NCBI GenBank assembly: GCA_035457485.1
Contig: DATIBO010000006.1
Coordinates: 370,659 to 434,658, forward strand
Origin: Candidatus Saccharimonadales bacterium
GTDB taxonomy: Bacteria > Patescibacteriota > Saccharimonadia > Saccharimonadales > EFPC-124
Direction of reading: 5' to 3'
Length of the DNA: 64,000 nucleotides
The notes below the pieces were generated by a model. The model had not been told where the DNA came from, did no database searches, and saw only the letters and a list, made by a program, of their open reading frames with translations. The translations under genes were made by a program, and so were the position numbers. This document shows, one piece after another, positions 3,136 through 58,559 of this stretch (its first letter is position 1; the number at the start of each line of letters is the position of its first letter).

Positions 3136-3164
3136 TTGACACTAAATCAATTTTGTAGTATGGT
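3136..3164 (+). promoter_or_regulatory. sigma70-like promoter of cassette A
   Basis: TTGACA, 17-nt spacer, TATGGT. The 5' UTR carries the hairpin CTGCCA-tatggt-TGGCAG, followed by a GGAGGG SD. Confidence 0.5.
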
Positions 3165-3217
3165 TTTGTCTTAGTCGCTGCCATATGGTTGGCAGTAACT
3201 AGCTTCCGGAGGGAAGA

Positions 3218-3748
3218 ATGACCGCTCAGACGCGAGACTTCGCCGAGATCAGCGACAAGCAGATCTTGGAGGAGGCGATGGAGTCCGGCGAGACGATCTT
3301 CAACGATCTGTTCTGGCGGGACCTTCTCAACAGCGAGACGGTGTGCATCACGGTCGCGCTGGTCGACGCCCTCGGCAACTACACCTGGCTGGGCAGTCAG
3401 GTCTTCGGCGACAAGGTTCAGTGGGACGAGAGCAAGTTCAACAGCTCGCCCGACGACAACTTCTGGGCCTACGCCGGCGGCAAGGCGATCACCTCGGCGG
3501 TGCTTCGCAAGAACACCCGCGAGGCTCGCGAAGCCGGCGACCCGCTCCCCGTGGGTGGCCTCGACTGGAACGGCGGCGTCTTCCGCGCAGTGACGTTCGG
3601 TTCGGGTGACCAGAGCCGGCACGTCGCCGTCGCGGTCGGAACGTGTGGTGTTCAGGGTGACTTCGACGAGGTCATCTCGGCGGCGGTCGTCAACACCTTC
3701 TGCGCCGTGTGGTTGCAGCGCGAAGCTGCCCGCGCCGCGCAGAAGTAA
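3218..3748 (+). CDS. G+C-rich cassette A: hypothetical cytoplasmic protein (176 aa)
   Basis: GC3-rich codons and a GGAGGG SD 4 nt before the ATG. Off-frame ORFs on both strands are typical of high-GC DNA. I recognise no confident family; there is only a faint GlcG/DUF336-like pattern (VAVAVGTCGVQGDFDEVIS). Confidence 0.75.
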   Translation: MTAQTRDFAEISDKQILEEAMESGETIFNDLFWRDLLNSETVCITVALVDALGNYTWLGSQVFGDKVQWDESKFNSSPDDNFWAYAGGKAITSAVLRKNTREAREAGDPLPVGGLDWNGGVFRAVTFGSGDQSRHVAVAVGTCGVQGDFDEVISAAVVNTFCAVWLQREAARAAQK

Positions 3749-3757
3749 CGCCCGCAA

Positions 3758-3803
3758 GAAGCCCGCAAGAGGTAAACTCTTTGCACCGCTTCTTGCGGGC
3801 TTC
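3758..3803 (+). terminator. GC-rich hairpin 3' of cassette A
   Basis: GAAGCCCGCAAGA pairs with TCTTGCGGGCTTC (13 bp) and there is no U-tract. It is homologous to the hairpin after cassette B. Confidence 0.6.
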
Positions 3804-3814
3804 GTACATTGAGC

Positions 3815-4348
3815 TTATTTTAATTTTTTAACTAGTTCATCAAGTTTGATAGTAGCGTCGTCAGATGTATTGATCGTGATCAATTTATCTAAACCGATCG
3901 GGATGTGCTGGGCGGAACGTGAGTAATCGTCGATACGGTCAAAATCTCGGTGGCCAGGATGCCGCTCGCCAGTCTTGACTCGCTCAATAAACCGCTGTCT
4001 CGAAAGCTCGTATGGTACCTTGCAATAAATCTCGATAATTTCTACATCTGGGAAGTCTTCGACAATTTTTTTAATCTGTTTACCGGCAAAGTCTGGGTTA
4101 AAAGCGTTTTCAATAATTAAAGAACGTCCGCTTTTTAAAATCCCTCTGGCAAGTTCGATTAAAAAATCAGCCGACAAAGAACCAAGCAATTTTGACCACT
4201 CCACATCATCAATCCCAAGTCTGTCAAATAAAAACTCTTTTATGTCATCCTTTGAAATTAGCATAATCTTTGTTTGTGCAGACAAGTTTCGCGATAACGT
4301 CGTTTTACCAGATCCTGGGGCACCGTTGACAATAATTAGTTTGTTCAT
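3815..4348 (-). CDS. P-loop NTPase / small-molecule kinase-like (AAA_33-type) protein
   Basis: Walker A motif GAPGSGKTT near the N-terminus. Composition is native and low in GC. The gene is sandwiched between cassettes A and B. Confidence 0.8.
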   Translation of the reverse strand: MNKLIIVNGAPGSGKTTLSRNLSAQTKIMLISKDDIKEFLFDRLGIDDVEWSKLLGSLSADFLIELARGILKSGRSLIIENAFNPDFAGKQIKKIVEDFPDVEIIEIYCKVPYELSRQRFIERVKTGERHPGHRDFDRIDDYSRSAQHIPIGLDKLITINTSDDATIKLDELVKKLK

Positions 4349-4451
4349 GCGGTTATTATATCTAATTTCGATAGACTTTAGACAATTTGCAATTTTCGTT
4401 AAAAAAGTTTATATTATGGTCACTCTTACGCAAGAGACAACGGAGGTGTTT

Positions 4452-5000
4452 GTGACCGCCACGACTCCCACTCAACAAAGGTGGAAGCTTGACAAGGAGC
4501 TGCGCGAGGGCCCGATGTTCGTTCTCGTCGACGGCGAACCGTTCAAGGTTCTGAGTTCGCTCCGGAACAGCAAGCTGTATGTCGGGACCTTCATCGACGA
4601 ATCCTATGCAGGTTTGCTGATGAAGTTCAATCCCGAGACCAAGGCCGTGACTACGATCGATGCTAACGCCGGGCTTCAGGCACTCTACATGAACAGGCTG
4701 GCGATCCCTGACTTCGTATCGCACTTGGTCAGGGCGGTTCAATGTAGTGGCCGAGACTACCGAACAGTCAGCGATGAGATCGCGCGGTCCCTATACGGGG
4801 CTGGCTTAACGGCCGAGATGACGGTTGCTCAGTGGTCGGCGTGTGCGCCGGAGAACGCCATCGATCACATCCGGGCTGACATCGACTGGATCTGGGTCCA
4901 GGCTCGGGCACACAGTCGATGGATGACGCTCCAGATCACACTGGCCGTACTCGCCAAGCTACAGCTCGATAAGCGAAGGCCGGCCGGGGACGGCCAGTAG
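4452..5000 (+). CDS. G+C-rich cassette B: hypothetical protein (~182 aa)
   Basis: GTG start 5 nt after a GGAGG SD. The longer track ORF (4242) runs antisense through the kinase gene and across a TTGCAA-17-TATATT promoter, so I trimmed it. Codons are GC3-rich. Confidence 0.7.
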   Translation: MTATTPTQQRWKLDKELREGPMFVLVDGEPFKVLSSLRNSKLYVGTFIDESYAGLLMKFNPETKAVTTIDANAGLQALYMNRLAIPDFVSHLVRAVQCSGRDYRTVSDEIARSLYGAGLTAEMTVAQWSACAPENAIDHIRADIDWIWVQARAHSRWMTLQITLAVLAKLQLDKRRPAGDGQ

Positions 5001-5011
5001 TACCTGCCCGC

Positions 5012-5061
5012 GAAAAGCCCGCAAGGAGCAATCCTCGCGCCGTGCTTCTCGCGGGCTTTTC
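5012..5061 (+). terminator. GC-rich hairpin 3' of cassette B
   Basis: GAAAAGCCCGC pairs with GCGGGCTTTTC. The region aligns with the cassette A 3' module. Confidence 0.6.
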
Positions 5062-5116
5062 ATATGTTGTCATAAACACCTAGCGGCAAAACGCTAACAC
5101 TTGTTACAATAAAGCA

Positions 5117-7280: not shown

Positions 7281-7314
7281 GGTGCTCTCTGAGCACCGGC
7301 GCTCCCGACGGGAG
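7281..7314 (-). terminator. tandem hairpins 3' of cassette C, abutting the pcrA stop
   Basis: CTCCC-gtc-GGGAG is followed by GGTGCTC-aga-GAGCACC and then AAAATTA on the minus strand. The same hairpins could also terminate pcrA. Confidence 0.55.
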
Positions 7315-7333
7315 GCTAGTGCTCAGAGTGTGC

Positions 7334-7888
7334 TCAGCTGGAGGCCTTGGTTTTGCGCTTGTGGCTGAAGTAGCCGAAGATCCCTGCGATGGCCAGCCCG
7401 ATCGAGATGATCCAGCAGGCGCTCAGCGCCAGCTTCAGTCGGGTATCGTAGACGTTGTAGTAGATCGTCTGGATGAGGACGCCGATGGCGAGTGTGACGC
7501 AGGCCATCCAGAACTTGGTGGGCCATGTGACGCGCTTGTCGTCGATTGCGGGCCGTCCACTGTTGAACAGCATCATCCCGAACGCCACCATGAGCCATGC
7601 CGCCATCCAGCCGTTCAGACTGTTGGCTTTGGGCAGCATCCTGTCGGTCGCTGCCAGCTGCTGCTCGACCTCGATGAAGTCGATGGCCGCGGAGGCCGTA
7701 CCGCAGATAGGAATAGCGAGCATGAGCGTTACGATGATGTTCGTTGCGGTCGGCGAGACCGGGAGCCAGCTCGCCAGTCTCCAGATGCCGACGGCGACGA
7801 GAATCGCCGCCATCCACTTTCCGGTTGGCGGGTCGTACAAGGCATACGTCACCGGGTCGGTCCCGATACTCGCAATTGCGTTGAACAC
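7334..7888 (-). CDS. G+C-rich cassette C: multi-pass membrane protein (184 aa)
   Basis: GTG start within the GGAGGTAGCTGTG context. It has 4-5 hydrophobic helices and GC3-rich codons. Confidence 0.75.
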   Translation of the reverse strand: MFNAIASIGTDPVTYALYDPPTGKWMAAILVAVGIWRLASWLPVSPTATNIIVTLMLAIPICGTASAAIDFIEVEQQLAATDRMLPKANSLNGWMAAWLMVAFGMMLFNSGRPAIDDKRVTWPTKFWMACVTLAIGVLIQTIYYNVYDTRLKLALSACWIISIGLAIAGIFGYFSHKRKTKASS

Positions 7889-7972
7889 AGCTACCTCCAG
7901 TAGCTAGTCGTTTGACTGGTTGAATTTATACACTATTGTAAGAAAAAAGCAAGATTCAACAGGGGTAATGTA

Positions 7973-8001
7973 TTGACTATTTTATATAAATATGGTATAG
8001 T
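7973..8001 (+). promoter_or_regulatory. sigma70-like promoter of cassette D (divergent from the cassette C promoter)
   Basis: TTGACT, 17-nt spacer, TATAGT. On the other strand, TTGCTT-16-TATAAA (7925-7952) faces cassette C. The spacer between them is AT-rich. Confidence 0.55.
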
Positions 8002-8063
8002 CTCTTTTAGACTTATTTGCAAGCATCTGCTTAGCAAAAAGTTGACGAGGAGAGGAATTTGAC

Positions 8064-8399
8064 ATGAGCTGCATCGCCAACCCCATGTGGGGCGGAGAAG
8101 TCGTGCTCGGCATGCCGAATGGAGCCCTGTGGGCTTTCGCGGTACTGCTGCCGGTCATCGCGGCCGCGCTCGGGCTCGCCTGCCTGATCTTGCACGAGAA
8201 CGGCGACAACGCCGCTATCGTCGGCGTGATCAGCAGCGTCTTCGCGCCCGTCGCGGCCTACTGCACGTTCATGCTCGACACCGAGCTGATCTCGCGCATC
8301 GGCAGCGACCCCACGGCCACCGGGATCGGCATCATCGCCCAGATCGTAGCCATGGGCTTCGGTCTAGTGATGGGCCTGATCGCCACATTCGACAACTGA
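8064..8399 (+). CDS. G+C-rich cassette D: small 3-TM membrane protein (111 aa)
   Basis: The ATG follows a GAGGAGAGG SD. The protein is very Ala/Gly/Ile-rich and hydrophobic, with GC3-rich codons. Confidence 0.75.
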   Translation: MSCIANPMWGGEVVLGMPNGALWAFAVLLPVIAAALGLACLILHENGDNAAIVGVISSVFAPVAAYCTFMLDTELISRIGSDPTATGIGIIAQIVAMGFGLVMGLIATFDN

Positions 8400-8407
8400 C
8401 GGCGCAC

Positions 8408-8444
8408 GGCGCCCTGCTCACCCTACTTGGGGAAGCAGGGCGCC
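8408..8444 (+). terminator. GC-rich hairpin 3' of cassette D
   Basis: GGCGCCCTGC pairs with GCAGGGCGCC. There is no U-tract. Confidence 0.6.
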
Positions 8445-8464
8445 AAAGCCTCAGTCCTCTCCTT

Positions 8465-8527: not shown

Positions 8528-8556
8528 TTGAAATTTTACTAATTTTATGGTATAAA
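8528..8556 (+). promoter_or_regulatory. sigma70-like promoter of cassette E
   Basis: TTGAAA, 17-nt spacer, TATAAA, immediately 3' of HHR-1. It is followed by a ~65-nt UTR and a GAGGAGG SD. Confidence 0.5.
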
Positions 8557-8621
8557 TACACAGTTGTTCAGCAAACCAGCTGATACGACAAAACGTACTG
8601 CATTGCCTGAGGAGGCTTGCA

Positions 8622-9245
8622 ATGTCCCTGTTCCGACGCGGCCAGCACTGCTGCTGCCAGCCAGCTTTCGCCACCATCATCGGCTTCGGGAGAATCCCGA
8701 TGACGAACGGTGGCCACAGCCACGACTGCACCTGCACGCACGGTCGCTGCATCGGTCCGGTCCGGATCGTCCACACCGCCGCCAACTGCACCTGCATCGA
8801 CGGCGAGTGCGACAAGACGGACTACGACCGCATCCAGCAGATGATCGACGCCGCCACGGCGCCGCTCACCATCCAGATCACCACGCTCACCAGTCGCCTC
8901 GACGAGGCCGGCCGGCGGATCGAGGACCTGGAGGCGCGGCCCATCGCCGGCATCACCGAGGTCGTGGGCGAGCGTCGCTCGTTCGTTACCCGGTGGACCC
9001 TGGTCGGAGCCATCATCGGCTTCGCTCTGGCGGTCATCGGGGCGCTCAGCGTCCCCGAGGGCATCTACCACCTGCTCGGCAACAAGACCTGGTTCTACAC
9101 CCAGAGCTTCCTGTTCTGGATGGAGATCATCATCGGTACGACGTTCATCGTCGCCGGACTCGGGTTCTTCTTCGGAATGGCCCGCAGTGCCGACGCCGTT
9201 CCGACGTACCGTGAGGTCACCCGCACGGACGGTGGTTCGCTGTGA
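8622..9245 (+). CDS. G+C-rich cassette E1: Cys/His-rich, coiled-coil, C-terminally membrane-anchored protein (207 aa)
   Basis: The N-terminus has CCCQ..HSHDCTCTHGRC..NCTCIDGEC. A heptad-like segment follows, then 2-3 C-terminal TM helices. Confidence 0.75.
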   Translation: MSLFRRGQHCCCQPAFATIIGFGRIPMTNGGHSHDCTCTHGRCIGPVRIVHTAANCTCIDGECDKTDYDRIQQMIDAATAPLTIQITTLTSRLDEAGRRIEDLEARPIAGITEVVGERRSFVTRWTLVGAIIGFALAVIGALSVPEGIYHLLGNKTWFYTQSFLFWMEIIIGTTFIVAGLGFFFGMARSADAVPTYREVTRTDGGSL

Positions 9246-9979
9246 ACCGTCGCCGTGTAGCGCTCGTTGGGTTGCTGGCGATTCCGCTGGCGTGCCTGGC
9301 GTTCGTGCTTTCGAACTCGGTGGTGATGGTCACCGGACCGGCTTCGGTTCCGGTGGCGATCGCGCCGAGTCCCTCTGTCGTCCCGTCCCCGGCCGTAGTG
9401 CCGCCGGACGACTACTGCCTGGTTAAGGCTCCGCCCGAGTATCTGGGCGAGTACACACCAGACAACGACTTCGGCTACCCTGCGGTTACCGATTGGGAGC
9501 GCAAGCACCCCAAGAAGTTCCTGCAGAACCCCGACAGTCTGCCCGACACGCTCACCGACCTGAAGATCCGCTGGTGCGGAGTCGATGGCGAGGGCGTGAG
9601 AGGCGGGGATCCGCTGCTTCAGAACGCACACTTCAGTGTGCCGGACGACAGCGACCCCAACCGCCCCTTCAACGAGGCCAGCTGGCGTGCCACCACGGAC
9701 GCCAACGTGAACCGCGTGAAGTGGGACCAGGCCGAGCTCAAGCTCGCGCCCGCGGGAGACTACTATGTCATGTACATGGTGGAATCCCGCAAGACCGGCA
9801 AGCTGGAAGTGCGAATCAGCCTCCAGTGGAAGCCGGACACCCTGGTGCTTATGCTGCCGATCGCGAGAGCGGACGGCACAGGCACCGAAACGCTGATGTT
9901 GCGACTGGAGTGTGGGTTCCAACCCATGTTCGAGAAGCGCAGCAGCGTCCCCCGGTGGCTGCAGAAGTTCCTGAACTGA
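9242..9979 (+). CDS. G+C-rich cassette E2: secreted protein with an N-terminal signal/TM segment (245 aa)
   Basis: GTG start overlaps the E1 stop (GTGA), suggesting translational coupling. The N-terminus is MNRRRVALVGLLAIPLACLAFVL, followed by a Pro-rich linker. Confidence 0.75.
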   Translation: MNRRRVALVGLLAIPLACLAFVLSNSVVMVTGPASVPVAIAPSPSVVPSPAVVPPDDYCLVKAPPEYLGEYTPDNDFGYPAVTDWERKHPKKFLQNPDSLPDTLTDLKIRWCGVDGEGVRGGDPLLQNAHFSVPDDSDPNRPFNEASWRATTDANVNRVKWDQAELKLAPAGDYYVMYMVESRKTGKLEVRISLQWKPDTLVLMLPIARADGTGTETLMLRLECGFQPMFEKRSSVPRWLQKFLN

Positions 9980-9995
9980 CGCCGCCACCAAGCGC

Positions 9996-10029
9996 GGGCC
10001 GCACCTGGACAAGTTCCCAGGTGCGGCCC
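9996..10029 (+). terminator. GC-rich hairpin 3' of cassette E
   Basis: GGGCCGCACCTGG pairs with CCAGGTGCGGCCC (13 bp perfect). Confidence 0.6.
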
Positions 10030-10094
10030 CGCCGCAACACCTTTGCCTCAGTAGGGCATTTTTTTATATCAAAAAATTGTGTCATAATTGAAGT

Positions 10095-10867: not shown

Positions 10868-12007
10868 ATGCGAATTATTGAGTTTACAAAATTCAAGAGT
10901 TTTTGGTGGGCTGCAGCACTTTTTATGGTGCTTTTGGCAGGCGTATTTGCATTGAATTCTGGTAAAACCCATGCCGAAAACGAGCGTGTTATTACTATTT
11001 ATCATGACGGCGCAGAACAAACGATCGTAACAGATGCTCCAAACGTAGAAGAGGCTCTAAAACGGAGTGGAATTTCACTTGGAACTAGCGATTTTGTTGA
11101 ACCGGCATTAAACACGCAGTTTGAAGCACCTGCTTACAATATAAATATTTACCGTGCTCGGCCTATATTAATAGAAGATGGCGGCCAAAAACATTACGTT
11201 AGTAGCCCATTTTCTAGCCCCGAAAAAATCGCTGAGGCAGCCGGACTTAAATTACACGATGAAGACATAGCCGAGCTTACCCGAAGCAACGATTTAGTTG
11301 GTGATGGCGTTGGTCTAAAATTAACTATCCATCGTGCCACGCATGTTGTTTTAGTACTCTATGGCATGCAAAAAGATGTATATACTCAGTCGGCAACTGT
11401 GGGTGCGTTCTTGCAAGAAAAAGGCATAAAGCTTGGCGCCGAAGATGGAACTAGCTCTAGCCTACAGACCCTAATTACGGCCGACTTTAAAATAGAAGTT
11501 TGGCGTAATGGGGTGCAAACTATAACCGAAGAACAAGAGGTTAAATTTGCTACCGAGACAATCCGCGACACAAGCAAGCCAGTTGGATTTAAAGAAGTTA
11601 AAGAGCCGGGCAAAAATGGTAAAAAACTCGTCACATACGAAGTTGAACTACGTAACGGTGTCGAGCTAAGCCGAAAAGAAATTCAAAGCGTAGTGACCGA
11701 GGAGTCTAAAAAACAGGTAGAGGTTATTGGTGTCCAGCTTGGATTCACTGGCGCTTTCCAGGAAGCCCTTGCAAAACTTCGTTCTTGTGAGGCTGGCGGT
11801 AACTATGATCGTAATAGTGGAAACGGCTACTACGGCGCATATCAGTACGACATCTCTACTTGGGCTAATTGGCAAGGCTACGCACGCCCCGATCTTGCGC
11901 CGGCCGAGGTTCAGGATGCTAAGGCGTACGAGACTTATATGAGACGCGGTTGGCAGCCATGGCCATCGTGCACCTCTAAACTTGGTTTACAAGATATTTA
12001 TCGTTAG
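10868..12007 (+). CDS. RpfB/YabE-like cell-wall protein (DUF348 repeats, G5 domain, Rpf-type transglycosylase-like domain)
   Basis: N-terminal TM segment. The G5-like segment is KKLVTYEVELRNGVELSRKEIQSVV. The C-terminus has CEAGGNYDRNSGNGYYGAYQYDISTW. Confidence 0.85.
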   Translation: MRIIEFTKFKSFWWAAALFMVLLAGVFALNSGKTHAENERVITIYHDGAEQTIVTDAPNVEEALKRSGISLGTSDFVEPALNTQFEAPAYNINIYRARPILIEDGGQKHYVSSPFSSPEKIAEAAGLKLHDEDIAELTRSNDLVGDGVGLKLTIHRATHVVLVLYGMQKDVYTQSATVGAFLQEKGIKLGAEDGTSSSLQTLITADFKIEVWRNGVQTITEEQEVKFATETIRDTSKPVGFKEVKEPGKNGKKLVTYEVELRNGVELSRKEIQSVVTEESKKQVEVIGVQLGFTGAFQEALAKLRSCEAGGNYDRNSGNGYYGAYQYDISTWANWQGYARPDLAPAEVQDAKAYETYMRRGWQPWPSCTSKLGLQDIYR

Positions 12008-20322: not shown

Positions 20323-20775
20323 ATGGAAGGTAGAATCCCCGACGGCCCCGAGGCCGTACTCGAGGGTGTGATCGCGGGTCGTAGAGCTGCAGGTCGCAAG
20401 TCCAAGATGACCGGCACGGGATGTCTCATCACTGTCGTCATCGTGGGCTTTCTGGTGGCCTGCTGCTGTGGCGCACCGAACTTCCCACTGTTCTTCAGTG
20501 GGACGGCCGTCGTCACGGTCTGCGACAAGGACCCAAAGCAGGACCAGTACCGGGTCAGTGTCAGTGACGGGGTCACCCGCGAGGTCTACGTGGTAGAGGA
20601 CATGCACCTCCCGATCGTGGCCTGGCGCACTGACGCCGCCGACCTATATTACCGCCTCGACAAGGGCAAGGTGTACGAGATCACGTACCGCGGTATCCGC
20701 TGGACGCCGGGATCGCGGTTCCGCAACATCGAGACCGCAACCCACCTGCCCAACGCAGTCCCCAAGGGCTGCTGA
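20323..20775 (+). CDS. G+C-rich cassette G: putative lipoprotein or membrane-anchored protein (150 aa, or 122 aa from the internal ATG)
   Basis: The hydrophobic segment CLITVVIVGFLVAC ends in a lipobox-like LVAC. Codons are GC3-rich. The start is uncertain (ATG 20323 or ATG 20407). Confidence 0.7.
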   Translation: MEGRIPDGPEAVLEGVIAGRRAAGRKSKMTGTGCLITVVIVGFLVACCCGAPNFPLFFSGTAVVTVCDKDPKQDQYRVSVSDGVTREVYVVEDMHLPIVAWRTDAADLYYRLDKGKVYEITYRGIRWTPGSRFRNIETATHLPNAVPKGC

Positions 20776-20786
20776 ACCCAAGAAGC

Positions 20787-20823
20787 GCGGCTCGGCCTGG
20801 ATGTTCATTCGGGCCGAGCCCGC
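20787..20823 (+). terminator. GC-rich hairpin 3' of cassette G
   Basis: GCGGCTCGGCC pairs with GGCCGAGCC(C)GC. There is no U-tract. Confidence 0.6.
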
Positions 20824-20833
20824 CCTTGGACGT

Positions 20834-22543: not shown

Positions 22544-22575
22544 AAACTTTAGCGTAAGCGTGTTACAATTGGCCT

Positions 22576-23805: not shown

Positions 23806-23858
23806 ATTAAGTATGTGATATACTAACTTTGTAAGCATAAACATAATCGAGGGAAGTT

Positions 23859-26324: not shown

Positions 26325-26561
26325 CTATCGCTTGGTGTGGTGGCGTCCCTTGCTGGGACTGCCGGACAGGAGTCCGTAAGCCGCAACGGCGATCAACACA
26401 AAGGTCGAAGTCACGCCGAAGAACATGAAGTTTTGAGCACTCTCGTCGTTCTGCGTAAGCGTGCAGGCCATGCTCCCACCATATCCTACGGCCGCACACG
26501 TCATCGAAACAATCAACGAGATGTACCAAAGCCAAGTCTTAAACTCCACAGCTTCCTCCAA
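26325..26561 (-). CDS. cassette H2: small 2-TM membrane protein (74-78 aa), intermediate GC
   Basis: The most likely start is GTG 26549, 5 nt after a GGAGG SD; the track uses TTG 26561. Hydrophobic helices are WLWYISLIVSMTCAAVGYGG and FFGVTSTFVLIAVAAYGLL. Confidence 0.6.
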   Translation of the reverse strand: MEEAVEFKTWLWYISLIVSMTCAAVGYGGSMACTLTQNDESAQNFMFFGVTSTFVLIAVAAYGLLSGSPSKGRHHTKR

Positions 26562-26586
26562 GGCTGCGATCCAATTAGACTTCTAT

Positions 26587-26614
26587 ATTATACCACAAGC
26601 ACTATAAAATTCAA
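26587..26614 (-). promoter_or_regulatory. sigma70-like promoter between H1 and H2
   Basis: On the minus strand: TTGAAT, 16-nt spacer, TATAAT, in a short AT-rich spacer between two GC-rich ORFs. Confidence 0.5.
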
Positions 26615-26667
26615 GGTATTGAGGGATGCGAGCGGCGAAATAGAACGCCGGCCCGCACCCCTGCTAC

Positions 26668-26832
26668 TCACGAGGCGAGGGAGGAGAAAAAGTCTCCGAA
26701 GCCCTCGGCGATGTCGATGAGCGTTCCGAACACCGACTTGACCACGTTGGCAGCACCGCTCGGGTTGTTGACAACCCAGGCAATTCCCAGGATCAGCAAG
26801 ATCCACGGCAGGAACTTTTTAAACTTGGCCAC
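26668..26832 (-). CDS. cassette H1: tiny single-TM protein (54 aa), below the track cutoff
   Basis: My own translation of the minus strand is VAKFKKFLPWILLILGIAWVVNNPSGAANVVKSVFGTLIDIAEGFGDFFSSLAS. It has a GTG start after GAAAGG and GC3-rich codons. The track ORF 26588..26806 is the wrong frame. Confidence 0.5.
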   Translation of the reverse strand: MAKFKKFLPWILLILGIAWVVNNPSGAANVVKSVFGTLIDIAEGFGDFFSSLAS

Positions 26833-35828: not shown

Positions 35829-35876
35829 TTAATTGTATTATAACTTAATTATCAAAATTTTGTGAGTCTGGGCATT

Positions 35877-35902
35877 GGGCCAGCGCCTCTCGACGCTGGC
35901 CC
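35877..35902 (-). terminator. GC-rich hairpin 3' of cassette I
   Basis: GGGCCAGCG pairs with CGCTGGCCC. Confidence 0.55.
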
Positions 35903-35915
35903 GCCCACCGAATGG

Positions 35916-36425
35916 TCAGATCGCAATGCCCTCCGCGGTGATGTGCTCTTCCCAGTTCTGGTTAGGGCGAGGCAAAGAGAAGACCAGTTTCCATCCTTCG
36001 AAGCTGCTGGGAGGGCAAACGGTAATATGATCGCACACGATTTTTCCGTGTAGGGAAACTGCTACGGCCTCGACCTGCTCAGCGGTGAACTCGTTGCCGT
36101 ACAGACTGAGAGTACGCCACCAGTTGCGGGGATACCGCGATACCGCGTATTCAACGTAATCGAGCGTGCCAGTGTACGGCATCTCGGTTCCGAAGTAGTG
36201 ACGCAGGGAATCGATTTGAGCATTTAAGTTGGCGCGAGCTACCTTGGCGACACGGATTACACATCCGTCGGCGGAAATCTCGGGCAGAAACCGATTTTGC
36301 TCAATTAGCCACTCTACGAATGCTCCCATTCTTAGTGTGGCGATATTCTCGCGGAACGTCACCACAACGTACCTGTAGTTTACTGTGATCTTGACTGCCT
36401 TGGGCGGTTCGCTGTTCTCTGTCAC
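35916..36425 (-). CDS. cassette I: hypothetical cytoplasmic protein (169 aa), intermediate-to-high GC
   Basis: GTG start in the GGAGTAGCTGTG context, the same string as cassette C. No family recognised. Confidence 0.7.
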   Translation of the reverse strand: MTENSEPPKAVKITVNYRYVVVTFRENIATLRMGAFVEWLIEQNRFLPEISADGCVIRVAKVARANLNAQIDSLRHYFGTEMPYTGTLDYVEYAVSRYPRNWWRTLSLYGNEFTAEQVEAVAVSLHGKIVCDHITVCPPSSFEGWKLVFSLPRPNQNWEEHITAEGIAI

Positions 36426-42789: not shown

Positions 42790-42848
42790 GAGTTTATTCT
42801 AACATGCTATACTTTATAGGTAAGCAATTTGGTGGAGAAGGACGGAAT

Positions 42849-43566: not shown

Positions 43567-43588
43567 GTTTGGATAAATTTGGATGGGT

Positions 43589-43612
43589 GGCGACTGTGGA
43601 GGAACAGTCGCC
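43589..43612 (-). terminator. GC-rich hairpin 3' of cassette J
   Basis: GGCGACTG pairs with CAGTCGCC, about 20 nt from the rplY terminator. Confidence 0.55.
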
Positions 43613-43681
43613 GCACCACCTCTCATCTTGCTTGTCTTGCTCGTTCTTGTTACGGCTCAGGCCGCCGGCGCCGCGTGGGCG

Positions 43682-44119
43682 TCAGGGCTTGATGTTCACG
43701 CAGATCTTGCCGATCTCCGTGCCGTACGACATGAACTGGAAGCACGCGCTGCCGGTCCGGGCCTTGCCGCTGATCGACGACCACCAGTGGCGGTAGCCCC
43801 AGGTGCGACCGTAGCCGCGGTAGGTGATCGCGCTCAGGTAGGCGGTGCCGTTGGTGTCGTAGAACGTCGTGCGCTCGGTCGGGTACTCCACGAAGAGCCC
43901 GTGCCAGCTGCCGCTGGTGCTGTTGACCTGCAGCCCGCTCCCGCTGACCGAGATGCAGTACTGGCCGGTGGGCACGGTGTAGCCCTGGATCCGGATCGAG
44001 CTGGTCAGCGCGCAGCGGGTGACGTCGGCGTGGGCCGGCGCAGCAGCGACGACCGACAGACCGATCATCAGACCGATCGCGGTCATCAGGACGCCGAAGC
44101 GTCGGAACATCGTCCTCAT
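43682..44119 (-). CDS. G+C-rich cassette J: secreted Cys-containing beta-rich protein (~145 aa precursor)
   Basis: Start at the ATG after GAAGGG (MRTMFRRFGVLMTAIGLMIGLSVVAAAPAHA|DV), a classic signal peptide with an AHA cleavage site. The mature part has 4 Cys. Confidence 0.7.
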   Translation of the reverse strand: MRTMFRRFGVLMTAIGLMIGLSVVAAAPAHADVTRCALTSSIRIQGYTVPTGQYCISVSGSGLQVNSTSGSWHGLFVEYPTERTTFYDTNGTAYLSAITYRGYGRTWGYRHWWSSISGKARTGSACFQFMSYGTEIGKICVNIKP

Positions 44120-44189
44120 AGCGGTTAACCCTTCAGACGGCGCAATTTGCGCAGATGGGTGGTGCATGCCGCAGGTAGCGGCTCGAACT

Positions 44190-44219
44190 ATTTTAAACTT
44201 ATTCTGTTAAATAAGTCAA
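44190..44219 (-). promoter_or_regulatory. sigma70-like promoter of cassette J
   Basis: On the minus strand: TTGACT, 17/18-nt spacer, TTAAAAT, starting 3 nt after the ABC exporter stop. The UTR carries the hairpin GCGCAAATTGCGC. Confidence 0.5.
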
Positions 44220-45988: not shown

Positions 45989-46132
45989 TTTTTGCCTCGT
46001 TAAAAATACCAAAATTGGTTTATTTTTGTGTTAAAAATGCGTGACTAAGTTCTTCCGTTTCGAAGGACGATCTAACGACCAGAGGACATTCCACCTAAAA
46101 TGTCGTAATCCATCAATTATAATGTATAATAT

Positions 46133-54340: not shown

Positions 54341-54745
54341 TTGGTGAAAGATTTGAGCGCTCTGGCAGACGCTCTTCGGGTTGTCTACGGGCTTGGCTCT
54401 GAGGAGGCGGCTAGTTGGGCGACTAAGGTTGATGTCTCGCTCGAGGATGTCATTAACCGGCGAGTTGACCCTGCGGAAGTGGAACTAAGAGCTCGTGTTG
54501 TAATGCAGAACCCACTGGCAGTGGCGCTAGTGAGACTGCGCAAAGAAGCAAAACTTTCTGCCGAGGAGGTGGTTGATAAGGCCTCATGGTCACGAAGCAA
54601 GCTGGCGAACATTGAAAAAGGCGCCGTAAAAGTTAGCAAAAATGACTTGGAGTTCTTGCTCAAGCTGTATGGCGCCTCAGCAGAGTTAATGATTGAACTT
54701 GAGGAACTTCGCTCTGAGCTTAAAGCGGCCTCCAAGATCGGTTAG
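54341..54745 (+). CDS. cassette K: XRE-family HTH protein of actinobacterial type (HTH_31-like), intermediate GC
   Basis: LRKEAKLSAEEVVDKASWSRSKLANIEKGAVKVSKNDLEFLLKLYG follows the WS.SK.S.IE.G...LL.LYG pattern of Streptomyces-type regulators. The start is TTG 54341 or GTG 54344, after an AAGGTGG SD. Confidence 0.7.
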   Translation: MVKDLSALADALRVVYGLGSEEAASWATKVDVSLEDVINRRVDPAEVELRARVVMQNPLAVALVRLRKEAKLSAEEVVDKASWSRSKLANIEKGAVKVSKNDLEFLLKLYGASAELMIELEELRSELKAASKIG

Positions 54746-54827: not shown

Positions 54828-54913
54828 GCGCGAGTGGTGGAATGGTAGACACGCTACCTTGAGGTGGTAGTGGGAGCAATCCTGTGGAGGTTCAAGTCCT
54901 CTCTCGCGCACCA
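54828..54913 (+). tRNA. tRNA-Leu (anticodon GAG), class II with a long variable arm, CCA encoded
   Basis: The acceptor stem is GCGCGAG/CTCGCGC. The anticodon stem-loop is CTACC-TTGAGGT-GGTAG. The T-arm is GGAGG-TTCAAGT-CCTCT. Confidence 0.9.
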
Positions 54914-54933
54914 AACAGTTCTTGTGCAAACCA

Positions 54934-54961
54934 AGCCGGACGAGCGATTCGTCCGGCTTTT
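54934..54961. terminator. bidirectional hairpin between tRNA-Leu and the GC-rich remnant
   Basis: AGCCGGACGA-gcgat-TCGTCCGGCT followed by TTT. Confidence 0.55.
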
Positions 54962-55054
54962 GCGTTTTCGACAGATACGCGAAGACCTTTTCTTGCTGGC
55001 CAGAACCCGGCACAGCAGGATGCGACACCGTCGCAACCTGCGGCTGACCACCGT

Positions 55055-55306
55055 TCATCTCACCTTCCGCCTCACGCTCGGCTCGCTCCTCGGCGATGTC
55101 GCCGCAGCGGCGACGCTCTTCTCGGCGTCGACCATCTCCCGCGTCAGCCGATCCATCTCGGTCTTGAGCATGTCCAGCGGCACAGCGCCGGCGTAGTGGG
55201 CGTTGAGCAGCTTCTCGCGGTCCTCGCTGATCTCCGGAACGGGACATTCGAGCTCCTGCCGACCGGAACCGGCGGAGTCAGTTCGGCAGTAATCAGCGGC
55301 GATGGC
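55055..55306 (-). pseudogene. GC-rich remnant resembling the C-terminal coiled-coil region of a recombinase-family (large serine recombinase-like) protein
   Basis: My minus-strand translation is ...QELECPVPEISEDREKLLNAHYAGAVPLDMLKTEMDRLTREMVDAEKSVAAAA. There is no start codon in frame. The frame then shifts into ...DIAEERAEREAEGE, which runs into the tRNA. The family assignment is from memory only. Confidence 0.4.
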
Positions 55307-55344
55307 TCAACCATCTCCAATCTCAGCCAAGCGCTAATCGTTGG

Positions 55345-55896
55345 CTAATTTGGCGCCGGTGCCACATTGACACCCAGCGAAACCCACTCTTTTGTGCCGA
55401 TGTCTGGATAAGAAGGATCTTGCGCCATGTCTTGATAATCCAGGACGAGTCGCATCATTAAACCATCACGAAAGGCAAAGACTGGACAGATTCCTAGCCG
55501 TCTGGCCGTACAACGCTCAACGTCTTCCGGAGAGTCGCCTGGAGCCATCCGATAGCCAAGCGTATTAAGGGTGTTCAGCAGAAAGGCTGCTCCATCTTTT
55601 GGCTCAAGTGGCACGTACCACTCCTGGTCATAACTAGGGCAAGTTATATCTATACAAAACAGAGGTTGCCCAACATGTACACCCTGGATTACTTCTCGTC
55701 CGGTGTATATCGCCCCTGCAGGTTTTAGAACTTCATCTTGCAGTCGGCCCATTTCATGTTGCACTTCCGAAAACTTACTTTGAATCACTTGCTCAGCCAT
55801 AACAAGGCCAAACCCGAGAAGCCCCAAAGAGAGGAACAAAACGATCAAGGTTCTACGAATATAACGATTAGCGGTTGTTTGCATATGCATTAACAT
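55345..55896 (-). CDS. hypothetical N-terminally anchored protein (183 aa), intermediate GC
   Basis: TM helix LIVLFLSLGLLGFGLVMA. No family recognised. Confidence 0.55.
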   Translation of the reverse strand: MLMHMQTTANRYIRRTLIVLFLSLGLLGFGLVMAEQVIQSKFSEVQHEMGRLQDEVLKPAGAIYTGREVIQGVHVGQPLFCIDITCPSYDQEWYVPLEPKDGAAFLLNTLNTLGYRMAPGDSPEDVERCTARRLGICPVFAFRDGLMMRLVLDYQDMAQDPSYPDIGTKEWVSLGVNVAPAPN

Positions 55897-55956: not shown

Positions 55957-56436
55957 GTGAAGACAACGCATCGATTGGCGCCGCGCCTACGTTATTTGAT
56001 TCTGCTATCAGTTTTAGCAGGATTAGTACTACCAAGCTGGATAGGAGTACCGCCAACCAGTGCCGCCGAGGTTCCCGGCTGCATGAACGGAGGCTTCCTG
56101 GTGGTTTTCCTGCGAGGAACCAACGGAACTCTTAACCGTTCAGGCGAGTACGAACGATTTACCTCAGGATTGACTAGTTCATTCGGCGATACTGCTAGGG
56201 TCGTAGAAATCGGCGACCAAGATGGAAATGGGCAGATCGATGTGCCGGGTTATAGCTACCCGGCGATCGGCCTACTTAGCCTGCCGGATTACGTAACCAG
56301 CGTGGCACTGGGCGTTAAGGAATTGACTGAACTCCTCAACTATCGAGCAGCCACCCTGAAATTATATAAATTCAAGTCTCTGCGTCGACCAGCCCACGCG
56401 GTCTGCGGGGCTGATCGACGACAGCGACGTCAGTAA
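55957..56436 (+). pseudogene. 5' fragment of a secreted cutinase/alpha-beta-hydrolase-like gene, truncated at the cassette L junction
   Basis: There is a signal peptide and then PGCMNGGFLVVFLRGTNGT (cutinase-like C..VVFARGT pattern). The sequence is lost before any GxSxG nucleophile. The last ~25 codons read through AT-rich junction DNA into the cassette L hairpin. Confidence 0.45.
56384..56419 (-). terminator. GC-rich hairpin 3' of cassette L
   Basis: GTCGACCAGCCC pairs with GGGCTGATCGAC (one mismatch). Confidence 0.5.
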
Positions 56437-57086
56437 ACGCCGGTTCGCAGTGGGAACTGCTCGGCGAGCATCATGAAGGTGGACGGGTAGTCGGTCATGG
56501 CCTGCGCGGTCAGAACGACCCTGATGTGCGAGGGCTTGTTCGGCCGTCGCACCCACTCGACGCTCACACACAGGCCGGTGGCCATCATGCGCGTCACGGT
56601 GGCGGGGATATATTGCTGGCCGGATTCCCCGAAGTTGAGGAATCCGTGCGTGATCTTGAACGAGTCGCCCAGGCCGGGCAGGAATCTGCCGGTTGGGGTG
56701 ATGTCAATCGTGTCCCTGTCGGGCTCACCCGCGAACTCGTTGTAAGTCGTGTCCTCCGGGTTCGCGGCACGCTGGAAGTAGCTGAACGTGATTCGATCCG
56801 GCGTGCTTACCGATCGGTCCATGTCCAGCAGGCTGAGCGTGGCCTCGATCATGTTGTTCACGTCGATTGTGAACTGAGCGTTGTTGCCGCTTGTCACGAC
56901 CACGGTTCCACGTTCGACGAGCCGACGGACGATCCGCCGCCGTCGGGGTGTTGCCTCTGCATTGTACAGCGTCACGTTGAAGCTGCGGCCTCGTAGTGAG
57001 TGGGTGATCTCGGCAATTGCTCTGGCGTCGTCTTGTCCGTAGCGCAGTTGAACTGTGCCGGGGCGGACGATTGCGCGCTCTCCCAT
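56430..57086 (-). CDS. G+C-rich cassette L: hypothetical protein (218 aa)
   Basis: ATG start 4 nt after a GGAGGG SD (GGAGGGAAAAATG). Codons are GC3-rich. No family recognised. Confidence 0.7.
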   Translation of the reverse strand: MGERAIVRPGTVQLRYGQDDARAIAEITHSLRGRSFNVTLYNAEATPRRRRIVRRLVERGTVVVTSGNNAQFTIDVNNMIEATLSLLDMDRSVSTPDRITFSYFQRAANPEDTTYNEFAGEPDRDTIDITPTGRFLPGLGDSFKITHGFLNFGESGQQYIPATVTRMMATGLCVSVEWVRRPNKPSHIRVVLTAQAMTDYPSTFMMLAEQFPLRTGVY

Positions 57087-57116
57087 TTTTCCCTCCATGG
57101 GCTTGACGTCGAATAT

Positions 57117-57184
57117 ACCATAACACCTTTTACATCATCGTACAAACCTAAACTATTTACTTTTTTTGTTTTTGGTTTTATAAT
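57117..57184. promoter_or_regulatory. divergent promoter pair for cassettes L and M in a ~130-nt AT-rich spacer
   Basis: Minus strand: TTGTAC-17-TATGGT (57117-57145). Plus strand: TTTACT-17-TATAAT (57156-57184). Confidence 0.5.
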
Positions 57185-57217
57185 ATTTAAATCAGCCACT
57201 TTCGTGAAGGATGTGAC

Positions 57218-57697
57218 ATGAGTACCTCGCGTCACCGCAAGGGTATTGTCGTGACTCGCACGCCGCGAACCTTCCCTGTTCCGGCCGCCGACGCGTTCAT
57301 CGGTACCGTCGGTACCCGCGCCAACAACGTCTCGATCTGGGAGCAGGTCGTCGCGAACATGCTGGTGATCCAGCAGCGCGCACGCTACATGGTCACCTGG
57401 ACCGAGGAGCAGGGCAAGAACATCAGCATGCGCTGGTGGATCGGCGACCAGGAGGTCTGTGCCCGGGCCTACAAGACCGTCTTGCACGACCGCTTCTGCA
57501 ACTACAACGACTGCCCGGGCTGCTACATCTACTGGGACCTGCGCCTTGAGCGGTTCGGCCCTAGCGGCCAGATCGCGGCGCAGTCCATGCCCGCGCTGCT
57601 CTACGGTGAGTGGCGCCAGGAGAGCTGGTCCGAGTTCCTCGACCGCCTCAACACCCAGCTCGACGCGGCCACGCGCGCCAACAACGGCCGCCGCTGA
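57218..57697 (+). CDS. G+C-rich cassette M: hypothetical protein (159 aa)
   Basis: ATG after a GAAGGA SD. Contains the Cys cluster CNYNDCPGC. No family recognised. Confidence 0.7.
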   Translation: MSTSRHRKGIVVTRTPRTFPVPAADAFIGTVGTRANNVSIWEQVVANMLVIQQRARYMVTWTEEQGKNISMRWWIGDQEVCARAYKTVLHDRFCNYNDCPGCYIYWDLRLERFGPSGQIAAQSMPALLYGEWRQESWSEFLDRLNTQLDAATRANNGRR

Positions 57698-57702
57698 TCT
57701 AA

Positions 57703-57756
57703 ACTCCGCTGACCCTTCGTGAGCAAGCATTCCGCTGGCCCAAGGGTCGGCGGAGT
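57703..57756 (+). terminator. long GC-rich hairpin 3' of cassette M
   Basis: ACTCCGCTGACCCTT pairs with AAGGGTCGGCGGAGT (one G:U), followed by GTTTTG. Confidence 0.6.
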
Positions 57757-57816
57757 GTTTTGCTATAAGGGGCTTTTTTTATAGCCAATAAAGTGTTATA
57801 CTACATAAGTTCTTAA

Positions 57817-57893
57817 GGGTTGTTAGCTCAGCTGGCTAGAGCATCTCGTTTACACCGAGAGGGTCGGGGGTTCGAATCCCTCACAACCCACCA
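57817..57893 (+). tRNA. tRNA-Val (anticodon TAC), CCA encoded
   Basis: The acceptor stem is GGGTTGT/ACAACCC. The anticodon loop is TTTACAC. The T-loop is TTCGAAT. Confidence 0.9.
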
Positions 57894-57896
57894 TAG

Positions 57897-57928
57897 AAAA
57901 AAGTCACCGGTAAAATGGTGACTTTTTT
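57897..57928. terminator. bidirectional terminator after tRNA-Val
   Basis: AAAAAAGTCACC...GGTGACTTTTTT. Confidence 0.6.
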
Positions 57929-57973
57929 CTATGGTTGCGATTATTGAGTTTTTTTACCAGAGTGATTTGCAAA

Positions 57974-58004
57974 TGCAGGCAGGCGCTCACCGCGCCTGCC
58001 TGCA
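57974..58004 (-). terminator. GC-rich hairpin 3' of cassette N
   Basis: TGCAGGCAGGCGC pairs with GCGCCTGCCTGCA (13 bp perfect). Confidence 0.6.
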
Positions 58005-58008
58005 GAGT

Positions 58009-58455
58009 CTACCTGCTCCGCACCCTGAGTTCGTGTAGAATCAGGACGCCGGTGACGAAGGCCGCCGCGAAGCACGCAAGCTCGAACATGCCAACCAGTA
58101 CACCTGATGACAGGCGAAGTTGGTAGGCGCCCTGAGCCGCCGTGGTGGTCGGACCTATGATACATAGCAGCATCACCGACCCAGTCCTTGCGTTGAAGTC
58201 TTCGGCTGAGCGTAGGTAGAGTAGCCACCAGGTAATGACTGTGGCTACTAGTGTGCACGCGATTGTCGCGGCCCAGTTGACGGGTCTGCTGACGCTCGAA
58301 ATTACGGCAGCGCTGCCGCCGATTCCGATGATTGCGAGCGCAAGGCTCAGCCACGCGGACGCGGCTTCGCGGATGGCGCGGAGGCTGAGGATGACGAGCA
58401 TGATCGATATGATCAGTCCAAACCAGCCGCCGTTGACAACAGGCGTTGATGGCAC
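58009..58455 (-). CDS. G+C-rich cassette N: 4-TM membrane protein (148 aa)
   Basis: GTG start 4 nt after a GGAGGG SD. There are four hydrophobic helices. Confidence 0.7.
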   Translation of the reverse strand: MPSTPVVNGGWFGLIISIMLVILSLRAIREAASAWLSLALAIIGIGGSAAVISSVSRPVNWAATIACTLVATVITWWLLYLRSAEDFNARTGSVMLLCIIGPTTTAAQGAYQLRLSSGVLVGMFELACFAAAFVTGVLILHELRVRSR

Positions 58456-58530
58456 GATGCCCTCCTGTGGTGTGTTTTGTCAAAATCACTCTGGAAGGTG
58501 CAAACCCAAAGCAATTTTGGATGCCAAGAT

Positions 58531-58559
58531 ACTATACAATAATTATTAAATTAATTCAA
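58531..58559 (-). promoter_or_regulatory. sigma70-like promoter of cassette N
   Basis: On the minus strand: TTGAAT, 17-nt spacer, TATAGT, followed by a ~70-nt leader. Confidence 0.5.

Follow-up and report, generated by a model that had tools for sequence, protein, structure and literature searches.

Horizontal transfer is said to be concentrated in chromosomal hotspots, or islets, between core genes, a concept reportedly set out by Oliveira et al. in 2017. Phage morons, described by Hendrix and Juhala, are single genes with their own sigma-70-type promoter, a factor-independent terminator and a deviant base composition, and Prochlorococcus and SAR11 carry a few fixed hypervariable islands that are enriched in cell-surface functions and usually have a lower or similar G+C content (GC). 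The present work concerns a stretch of 64,000 nucleotides (nt) of Candidatus Saccharimonadales bacterium (contig DATIBO010000006.1, positions 370,659 to 434,658; hereafter the window), in which small GC-rich gene units, here called islands, lie scattered among native-composition backbone genes. Its source is an uncultured soil Saccharimonadales (TM7) metagenome-assembled genome (MAG), held at NCBI as a third-party annotation (TPA) record with locus tags VLA77_ on an 889,392-bp contig, and this lineage agrees with the small-genome epibiont backbone claimed in an earlier reading of the bare sequence (hereafter the original prediction). For environmental Saccharibacteria the host is unknown in nearly every case, and genomes offer few clues to it, gene transfer being one. 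Transfer from Actinomycetota to Saccharimonadia has been reported for a five-gene region with >99% nucleotide identity and with recombinases beside tRNAs (bioRxiv 10.64898/2026.09.16.751625), and Jaffe et al. reported no evidence of transfer in cultured (oral) Saccharibacteria-host pairs (PMC8406219). It has been proposed, too, that Patescibacteria feed on host RNA and have a codon usage complementary to that of GC-rich hosts (bioRxiv 10.64898/2026.06.21.733656). A literature search turned up no account of high-GC islets that are dense and conserved in position.

Twelve islands stand in the window (A, B, C, D, E, G, H, I, J, L, M and N). We propose, with moderate confidence, that they occupy conserved hotspots of horizontal transfer, whose moron-like accessory genes of high GC have been trimmed and turned over on a long timescale; the best reading is a long-standing flexible-gene compartment rather than a new mechanism of single-gene capture from hosts. 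The layout was identical in an independent Logan assembly of SRR25158331 (contig L001), and the pattern recurred in independent MAGs of related species. The junctions, more than 20, are all intergenic, in keeping with the earlier description of the flanking housekeeping genes as intact.

The window has a GC of 46.0% overall. Two-state segmentation separated 13 high-GC segments totalling 7,510 bp, or 11.7% of the window, which agrees with the eighth estimated previously, and their mean GC was 63.5% against 43.7% for the backbone. GC at third codon positions (GC3) was 0.78–0.95 in A, C, D, E1, E2, G, J, L and M and intermediate in B (0.74), N (0.71) and I (0.64), whereas 13 backbone housekeeping genes showed values of 0.37–0.43; across the GC-rich genes GC3 formed a continuum, from 0.95 down to 0.58. 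Unit H was missed by total-GC segmentation, the third codon position alone being elevated in its two genes (0.80 and 0.71, with low GC at positions 1 and 2). Averaged over 11 units, mean GC was 0.32 at positions −140 to −61, 0.35–0.38 in the 5' leader, 0.52 at the Shine-Dalgarno (SD) site, 0.58–0.65 in the open reading frame (ORF) and 0.35 in the 80 nt past the hairpin, a profile that bears out the sharp compositional switch described at the cassette edges. The units are the following, with lengths in amino acids (aa), transmembrane (TM)-like segments and promoter-like sites as predicted:

Unit A, 3136..3800, plus strand: ORF 3218-3748, a 176-aa orphan with GC3 0.88 and a GGAGG SD; promoter-like TTGACA-17-TATGGT at 3136-3164; GC hairpin at ~3750-3800.
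Unit B, 4386..5056, plus strand: GTG-start ORF 4452-5000, a 182-aa orphan with GC3 0.74 and a GGAGG SD; promoter-like site 4386-4415; hairpin 5006-5056.
Unit C, 7281..7960, minus strand: ORF 7334-7888, 184 aa, four TM-like segments, GC3 0.85, GGAGG SD; hairpin 7281-7330; AT-rich promoter region divergently common to C and D.
Unit D, 7973..8450, plus strand: ORF 8064-8399, 111 aa, three TM-like segments, GC3 0.89; extended −10 promoter-like site 7973-8001; hairpin ~8408-8444.
Unit E, 8540..10032, plus strand: two-gene operon of E1 and E2; hairpin 9996-10029.
E1, 8622-9245, plus strand: Cys-rich N-terminus, coiled coil, two TM-like segments, GC3 0.90.
E2, 9242-9979, plus strand: signal/TM anchor, Pro-rich linker and a domain ending L-x-L-E-C-G-F-Q-P, GC3 0.83.
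Unit G, 20323..20828, plus strand: ORF 20323-20775, 150 aa, N-terminal TM/signal segment, GC3 0.79; hairpin with a GC stem of 13-14 bp.
Unit H, 26325..26832, minus strand: small membrane ORFs 26668-26832 (54 aa) and 26325-26549 (74 aa, GGAGG-N5-GTG).
Unit I, 35870..36425, minus strand: ORF 35916-36425, a 169-aa orphan with a GGAG SD; hairpin 35877-35902.
Unit J, 43581..44190, minus strand: ORF 43682-44119, 145 aa, signal-peptide-like N-terminus ending AHA, GC3 0.95; GC-rich leader; hairpin ~43581-43620.
Unit L, 56376..57217, minus strand: ORF 56430-57086, a 218-aa soluble orphan with GC3 0.79 and a GGAGG SD; hairpin 56376-56425; AT-rich (~33% GC) promoter region divergently common to L and M.
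Unit M, 57218..57756, plus strand: ORF 57218-57697, a 159-aa soluble orphan with GC3 0.90; hairpin 57703-57756.
tRNA-Val, 57817-57893: downstream of unit M.
Unit N, 57974..58560, minus strand: GTG-start ORF 58009-58455, 148 aa, four TM-like segments, GC3 0.71, GGAGG SD; hairpin 57974-58004; AT-rich promoter region.

The cassette list of the original prediction was thus upheld for these twelve units but not for two further ones, F and K, which have native composition, nor for a presumed recombinase remnant at 55055-55306. F (13843-14106), with a GC3 of 0.47 and orthologs in relatives, is a BldC-family regulator (NF033787, 83.3 bits against a curated cutoff of 77), and K (54341-54745), with a GC3 of 0.53, is an XRE/HTH_31 protein, so that the families from which an actinobacterial flavour had been read are not part of the GC-rich set. 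The bias towards envelope or secreted products was likewise not borne out, TM-like segments being present in 7/12 island and 20/52 backbone proteins (p=0.33). The region 23898-24091 was rejected as an island because it is a low-complexity Pro/Thr/Gly ORF whose GC comes from codon positions 1 and 2; the ORF in question, 23858-24094 on the plus strand, encodes a 78-aa Pro/Thr/Gly/Ala-rich peptide, has an SD-like GAGGGAAG and native GC3, and looks island-like in total-GC scans.

Two other sources of such composition were considered and set aside. A gene of native composition lies between two islands:

Zeta-toxin/AAA_33-like kinase gene (accessory), 3815..4348, minus strand, between A and B in their slot: GC3 0.39; Pfam assignment from the Logan annotation.

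No homolog of this gene was found in the loci of relatives. Its position between A and B means that the GC shift is specific to genes and not regional, which disfavours a regional GC-raising process. De novo ORFs arising in GC-rich DNA were ruled out by the GC3 > GC1 > GC2 periodicity of the islands and by the conserved motifs of E2, both of which indicate long-term coding.

For comparison with other genomes, relatives were taken as UvrD-anchored loci from 80 species representatives, nearly all of them Saccharibacteria, the nearest being 75–79% identical in UvrD (loci and contigs carry the prefix L). The backbone order TIM-x2025-UvrD-NUDIX-Rpf was conserved among them. The original prediction had proposed a search for empty sites in related genomes, and such sites exist: both slots flanking UvrD are empty in L007, and the same slots hold differing or diverged GC3-elevated genes in nine other relatives (L002, L003, L004, L005, L006, L008, L009, L010 and L046), some of which also carry GC3-elevated genes in the slot between PK and PGK. 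GC3 deviation was confined to lineage-restricted genes among the 1,427 called; no family found in 10 or more loci deviated (maximum +0.04).

Several occupants of these slots, which throughout the clade are filled by small and mostly orphan genes that evolve quickly, are related to one another. A gene of the E2 family lies directly downstream of UvrD, in the slot between UvrD and NUDIX, in the window and in L002, L004 and L008. E1 was detectable in L004 and L006, and E1 and E2 occur together on L082, a 1.2-kb contig of 63% GC. Genes of the HbpS-like type (PF03928) fill the upstream slot in L002, in L004, which has two, and in L046; unit A, which has no Pfam match, gave a weak alignment (hhalign, E=0.009) against four HbpS-like slot genes on invariant K-A-x-T...W-x-G-G motifs, and judging from these is possibly a diverged HbpS/GlcG-like protein. 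E1 and E2, and probably A, have their best relatives in the same slots of other Saccharibacteria, contrary to the expectation of best hits in foreign taxa.

These relationships are old. At four-fold degenerate sites under conserved amino acids, the third base of E2 in the window was the same as in L002 at 12/44 sites (13.7 expected), as in L004 at 15/40 (14.8 expected) and as in L008 at 17/43 (14.5 expected). Since this sharing does not exceed chance, synonymous sites are saturated and E2 is not a fresh capture. In these four genomes, the E2 orthologs nevertheless have a GC3 of 0.83–0.93 while that of the backbone is 0.42–0.63. In pairs of relatives, GC-rich positional orthologs are 33–52% identical (L009/L010, L003/L005, L002/L046 and L037/L074), and their divergence does not follow that of the backbone. 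A further set of syntenic E2-family orthologs with the same conserved neighbours was found in three loci about equidistant from one another (UvrD 66–71% identical): L023 1324-2988, with a native GC3 of 0.33, L037 2592-3542, with 0.76, and L074 1608-2681, with 0.80, where backbone GC3 is 0.41–0.47 (0.41 in L023). Saturated orthologs that are still GC-rich, together with the native one of L023, indicate that the genes are neither simple fresh captures nor a uniformly maintained class.

An AT-rich upstream region with plausible −35/−10 elements of the sigma-70 type was recognized for every unit, an SD in 11/12 of them (six with perfect GGAGG), and a strong GC hairpin ~5–30 nt past the stop codon in every unit examined (H was left out). 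Judged by these signals, the units appear to be autonomous promoter-SD-ORF-terminator transcription units, mostly with a single ORF, of a moron-like architecture. The common layout described earlier therefore stands as a prediction for the units, but the hairpin is not specific to cassettes, as a hairpin of this type also closes native F and AlaRS (26149-26204). The hairpin regions of A and B (3745-3830 and 4997-5082) are 79% identical over ~60 nt and their ORFs unrelated; no third copy was found in the window or in the loci fetched from other genomes, and the likeness could come from a shared donor repeat or from local duplication. A −10 motif, TATGGTATA, occurs exactly upstream of D, E and L; it was discarded as an island-specific promoter because its total number is at chance level and one-mismatch versions precede native genes.

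What truly sets the islands apart is not the hairpins but translation initiation. Seven genuine gene starts, each belonging to a GC-rich gene, show a perfect GGAGG-N5/6-start arrangement, against 0 of ~55 backbone genes. The energy of the predicted duplex with the anti-SD was −8.1 kcal/mol for islands versus −2.6 kcal/mol for the backbone in the window (p=6e-4), and −8.8 versus −5.3 kcal/mol for GC-rich versus other genes in relatives (p=2.5e-14), where GGAGG precedes 25% of GC-rich and 3% of other genes. A −10-like hexamer ending 3–12 nt before the start codon was present in 13/33 first-in-unit backbone genes versus 1/11 island genes (p=0.08). Such a box close to the start, with no SD, makes ~40% of the first-in-unit backbone genes look leaderless. 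The backbone boxes are of the TACAAT, TATAAT or TAGAAT type, often after TGT, and examples that end 5–10 nt short of the start codon are found at 5095-5116 (UvrD), 22555-22575, 32813-32833, 34147-34167, 42790-42811 (minus strand) and 46112-46132.

Relatives of the island proteins outside these slots were sought in several collections. None of ten island proteins scored above the Pfam gathering threshold. In an exact look-up in ~15 billion proteins, 9/9 of the island proteins found were singletons or members of self-only clusters; a tenth, J with a longer start, was absent from the collection. An exhaustive HMMER search of L against 1.84 billion representatives returned L itself and one marginal match (E=4.5e-4), which involved four stretches of a 1160-aa protein of calycin-like beta-barrel repeats (PF13944), and on this similarity L may be a single calycin-like domain. 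By tblastn, 12 island proteins had no match in 50,697 phages or 72,556 plasmids, and five (including J and M) had no close relative in 2.9 million viral contigs, results that speak against the suggested capture from phages for the proteins tested. The only PHROGs matches of the islands were a remote one of G to phrog_301, 'secreted protein' (E=5e-10; G had no phage match by tblastn), and a weak one of J to phrog_8414. PADLOC found no defence-system match for the islands, and unit I had no Pfam, NCBIfam or PADLOC match. AlphaFold2 models of A (single sequence) and E2 (three sequences) were unusable, with mean predicted local distance difference test (pLDDT) values of 40.5 and 46.4, respectively.

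The composition of the islands is that of a high-GC genome. Their relative synonymous codon usage (RSCU) correlated with that of relatives' islands (r=0.97) and of genes on genuine 64–69% GC soil contigs (r=0.95), versus r=−0.22 for their own backbone. Arg/(Arg+Lys) was 0.72 in islands versus 0.42 in the backbone, and Gly, Ala, Arg and Pro (GARP) residues made up 29.8% versus 24.3%. The shift at codon positions 1 and 2 and in amino acids argues for a history of GC-biased pressure and not for codon selection alone. Composition, codon usage, the Arg/Lys ratio and SD-led initiation all support the view, already put forward, that the genes were shaped in a high-GC genome.

Metagenome contigs were scanned for E2 with a profile that was based on a three-sequence alignment and required two exact peptide motifs, so that the recovered diversity is biased. 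The scan yielded eight relatives, all on uniformly 64–69% GC soil contigs, with LuxR, WYL, NUDIX, insertion sequence (IS) and integrase genes as neighbours; a local hidden Markov model independently recovered 7/8. A seven-sequence E2 alignment was too divergent for such a scan, and an E2-family profile searched against proteins, swamped by Pro-rich words, returned only the query and the L008 ortholog. The eight contigs (L083-L090) come from JGI soil metagenomes (Ga0126374_10003658, Ga0081540_1001195 and others), and the E2 homolog is a single gene that lies beside an IS-type transposase on L086 (555-1709) and beside an integrase-like gene on L087 (1577-2419). The bacterium they represent is a candidate host lineage or exchange partner. 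Relatives in high-GC taxa, expected by the original prediction for the cassettes in general, were found for one family, E2; all nine island proteins found in the exact look-up are orphans. E2 is similarly distant, with 22–34% identity, from copies in other Saccharibacteria and from those of the high-GC soil bacterium. In a neighbour-joining tree the latter form one shallow clade (82–100% identical) beside L002, among deep Saccharibacteria branches.

The reading in terms of conserved hotspots would account for these observations as follows. The hotspots would be a handful of gaps between operons, such as those between x2025 and UvrD, UvrD and NUDIX, and PK and PGK. The genes, or their ancestors, would derive from the surrounding high-GC bacterial pool, most plausibly from Actinomycetota hosts, and would probably have been taken up as DNA and integrated by illegitimate or homology-facilitated recombination. 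Insertions would survive at the few sites where no operon is broken, and the deletion bias of a reduced genome would trim them to a minimal expressed unit, a process that is proposed to give the sharp boundaries from SD to hairpin. Over long periods genes would then persist, be exchanged or give way to others at the same site, with no dedicated machinery. The GC3 continuum from 0.95 to 0.58 fits differing residence times. The syntenic backbone of native composition includes BldC-family F (13843-14106, minus strand) and an RpfB-type DUF348-G5-transglycosylase gene (10868-12007, plus strand), which would represent ancient ties to Actinomycetota, ameliorated in full; these two genes and the native E2 ortholog of L023 show that amelioration does occur.

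Several observations weigh against this interpretation. Saturated E2 orthologs keep a GC3 of 0.83–0.93 whatever the GC3 of their backbone, which acquisition followed by amelioration does not predict, and why positional orthologs hold values of 0.8–0.9 despite saturated divergence is unexplained. No donor was found: all nine proteins found in the exact look-up are orphans although the collection holds the Logan assembly of the same sample, in which an abundant host should appear. The AT-rich promoter regions common to the divergent pairs C-D and L-M are awkward for fragment insertion, and the route of entry, by transformation and illegitimate recombination, is one that we infer. The shallow high-GC clade nested within Saccharibacteria means, moreover, that transfer could run from the epibiont to the high-GC bacterium, although the motif-limited scan biases this picture.

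The main rival, possible though doubtful, is that the islands are endogenous accessory genes, inherited vertically as a class, in which high GC and a host-like codon usage are actively maintained. The force could be selection (for instance, translation tuned to another tRNA supply at host contact) or a gene-specific GC-biased process such as gene conversion at loci that recombine often. Persistence of GC3 at 0.8–0.9 in saturated positional orthologs, independently of backbone GC3, is what such a class would show, and a GC block made of SD, ORF and terminator behind an AT-rich 5' leader fits a constraint at the coding level; the distinct mode of initiation common to the class across the clade, and the orphan status of the proteins outside Saccharibacteria, point the same way. 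Active maintenance does not, however, account for the shift at codon positions 1 and 2 and in amino acids, which favours mutational history over codon selection, nor for a GC3 that is continuous from 0.95 to 0.58 where a class would be discrete, nor for ortholog divergence that does not track that of the backbone. The native gene between A and B speaks against a regional process, the L023 ortholog is fully native in composition, and an offset of +0.45 in GC3 has no known bacterial mechanism.

The model of the original prediction, repeated recent capture of single genes from a current actinobacterial host or its phages behind native promoters, is unlikely. High-GC composition and codon usage, the epibiont lineage, published recent transfers from Actinomycetota to Saccharimonadia and the E2 relatives in a high-GC soil bacterium are all compatible with it, and unameliorated GC3 of up to 0.95 is normally a sign of recent arrival. 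It is opposed by homologs, saturated at synonymous sites, that fill the same slots in species whose UvrD is only ~78% identical, by the lack of phage, plasmid and viral-contig relatives, and by the orphan status of the proteins in the exact look-up and of L in the HMMER search; random host DNA would give mostly recognisable families and not 12/12 orphans. Insertion signatures were not found either. Orphan proteins, same-slot relatives and saturated E2 sites together leave this model unsupported.

A speculative and quite improbable extension is that the clade keeps a positionally conserved, amelioration-resistant compartment with host-like GC and codons and strong SD sites, set in a genome that is otherwise AT-rich and poor in strong SD sites, and perhaps coupled to the host. 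Such coupling might mean that RNA or tRNA taken from the host gates translation during feeding, so that the genes would encode envelope or secreted factors induced by host contact; alternatively, the coupling might lie in continuous two-way gene exchange, and the nested high-GC E2 clade hints at transfer from epibiont to host. If the clade does keep such a compartment, L023 (GC3 0.33) versus L037/L074 (0.76–0.80) would be a natural switch between two states.

Deposition of the units by integron-type cassette capture, or by decayed tRNA-targeting integrative elements or prophages, is very improbable. The layout of ORF plus hairpin superficially resembles ORF plus attC, and the right-hand cluster (54.8–58.5 kb) lies among four tRNA genes, one of which adjoins a GC-rich fragment:

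GC-rich fragment, decayed or non-genic, 54920..55379, minus strand: 61% GC; abuts the 3' side of tRNA-Leu (54828-54913).

The frame 55055-55306 on the minus strand within it is coding-like, with GC of 0.65/0.51/0.82 at the three codon positions; it was rejected as a recombinase remnant, having no similarity to Pfam, to phages or plasmids (tblastn) or to the serine recombinase of the window. That enzyme, of 534 aa (61659-63263, minus strand) and native composition, is the only recombinase among the window proteins scanned (which fell short of a complete Pfam scan of every ORF), and the end of its gene overlaps the 3' end of tRNA-Gly (61606-61681); the region to its right, 61.7–64 kb, may be a separate integrative element. 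The association recalls the recombinases beside tRNAs in the published Saccharimonadia transfer region (bioRxiv 10.64898/2026.09.16.751625). The units themselves, however, are dispersed over 55 kb and not arrayed, each with a promoter-like site, and most of them (A-J) are distant from any tRNA. No flanking direct repeats above chance were found around the units, no att repeats at tRNA ends in 54–64 kb, and no GTTRRRY core sites within 25 nt of 11 hairpins (0 found, 2.0 expected), the stems being near-perfect GC helices typical of terminators. No integrase adjoins the units, the GC-rich fragment is not recognisably a recombinase, the serine recombinase is not of island composition, and PHROGs matches are limited to the remote one of G and the weak one of J. 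The same negative results leave the suggested system that would place ORFs singly behind native promoters unsupported.

That high-GC reads were joined chimerically into a low-GC contig during assembly or binning is scarcely credible, even for a metagenome-assembled TPA record from soil, where high-GC organisms dominate, given that >20 junctions each lie in intergenic DNA with neighbours intact, that the independently made Logan assembly has identical sequence, that MAGs from other studies hold GC-rich genes, some of them homologous, in the same slots, and that promoter, SD and terminator signals are ordered within the units.

The GC-rich pattern extends beyond the window, into the 4.4 kb upstream of its start (L001 1-4364), where further genes of this kind are found:

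SPFH/Band-7 gene, L001 187-1245, minus strand: GC3 0.93.
Two small membrane ORFs, in the slot between PK and PGK, upstream of the window start: GC3 0.76-0.80.

In L005 the slot between PK and PGK holds six GC3-elevated genes. Gene calls on the Logan contig placed several GC-rich ORFs in the wrong frame or strand: unit C was miscalled as a plus-strand ORF (L001 11692-12267), E1 was displaced by an antisense call (L001 12932-13435, minus strand), and the minus-strand SPFH/Band-7 gene was miscalled as L001 154-1272 on the plus strand. Because gene callers fail on such ORFs, the class is probably mis-annotated and under-reported in MAGs of the candidate phyla radiation (CPR). Two of the contigs used here are probably mis-binned: L006 (DATLJN010000063.1), filed under a 'Magnetospirillaceae bacterium' MAG, has a UvrD 77% identical to that of the window, and L011 (DATLVY010000009.1), filed under a 'Candidatus Acidoferrum sp.' MAG, one 63% identical; of the two, only L006 was mapped at the level of single genes, and it shows synteny with the UvrD locus of Saccharibacteria.

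The codon and oligonucleotide signature of the compartment, together with shared families of the E2 type, could be used to nominate hosts. A GC3 of 0.8–0.9 across saturated divergence is a problem for the amelioration model, and GC-rich persistence bears on the proposal that patescibacterial AT-richness is under selection to complement the codon usage of hosts (bioRxiv 10.64898/2026.06.21.733656). The most interesting observations, and genuinely unexplained ones, are this persistence, the dichotomy between leadered genes with an SD and SD-poor ones that often look leaderless, and the flip in composition between L023 and L037/L074.

Compared with described systems, the islands resemble integron cassettes in their compact ORF followed by a hairpin and in their many small orphan, often membrane or secreted products, but differ in having no array, intI or attC core sites and a promoter-like site of their own for each unit. 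With the islands of Prochlorococcus and SAR11 they have in common a small genome and few fixed variable regions; there, however, the islands are large and multi-gene, whereas those of this epibiont are single-gene islets with a far higher GC. The published transfer into Saccharimonadia likewise involves an epibiont with small host-type regions (a regulator and unknown genes in that case), partly near tRNAs or recombinases, but it has an identifiable donor, whereas at this locus no donor is detectable, at least 12 units occur in 64 kb and several are old positional orthologs. Like phage morons, the islands are single genes between unrelated neighbours, with a predicted promoter and terminator of their own and a differing composition; unlike morons, they lie in a bacterial chromosome between housekeeping operons, with no phage genes nearby and with the remote PHROG match of G. 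The hotspots of transformable bacteria are closest to the reading favoured here: in both, accessory genes of variable content sit in few core-flanked intervals, many of which have no recognisable mobility genes, and turnover by recombination is inferred. Unlike that of such hotspots, the cargo here is uniform and extreme (+0.45 in GC3) and consists nearly entirely of single-gene orphan units, which differ in their mode of initiation and keep a foreign composition across species-level divergence.

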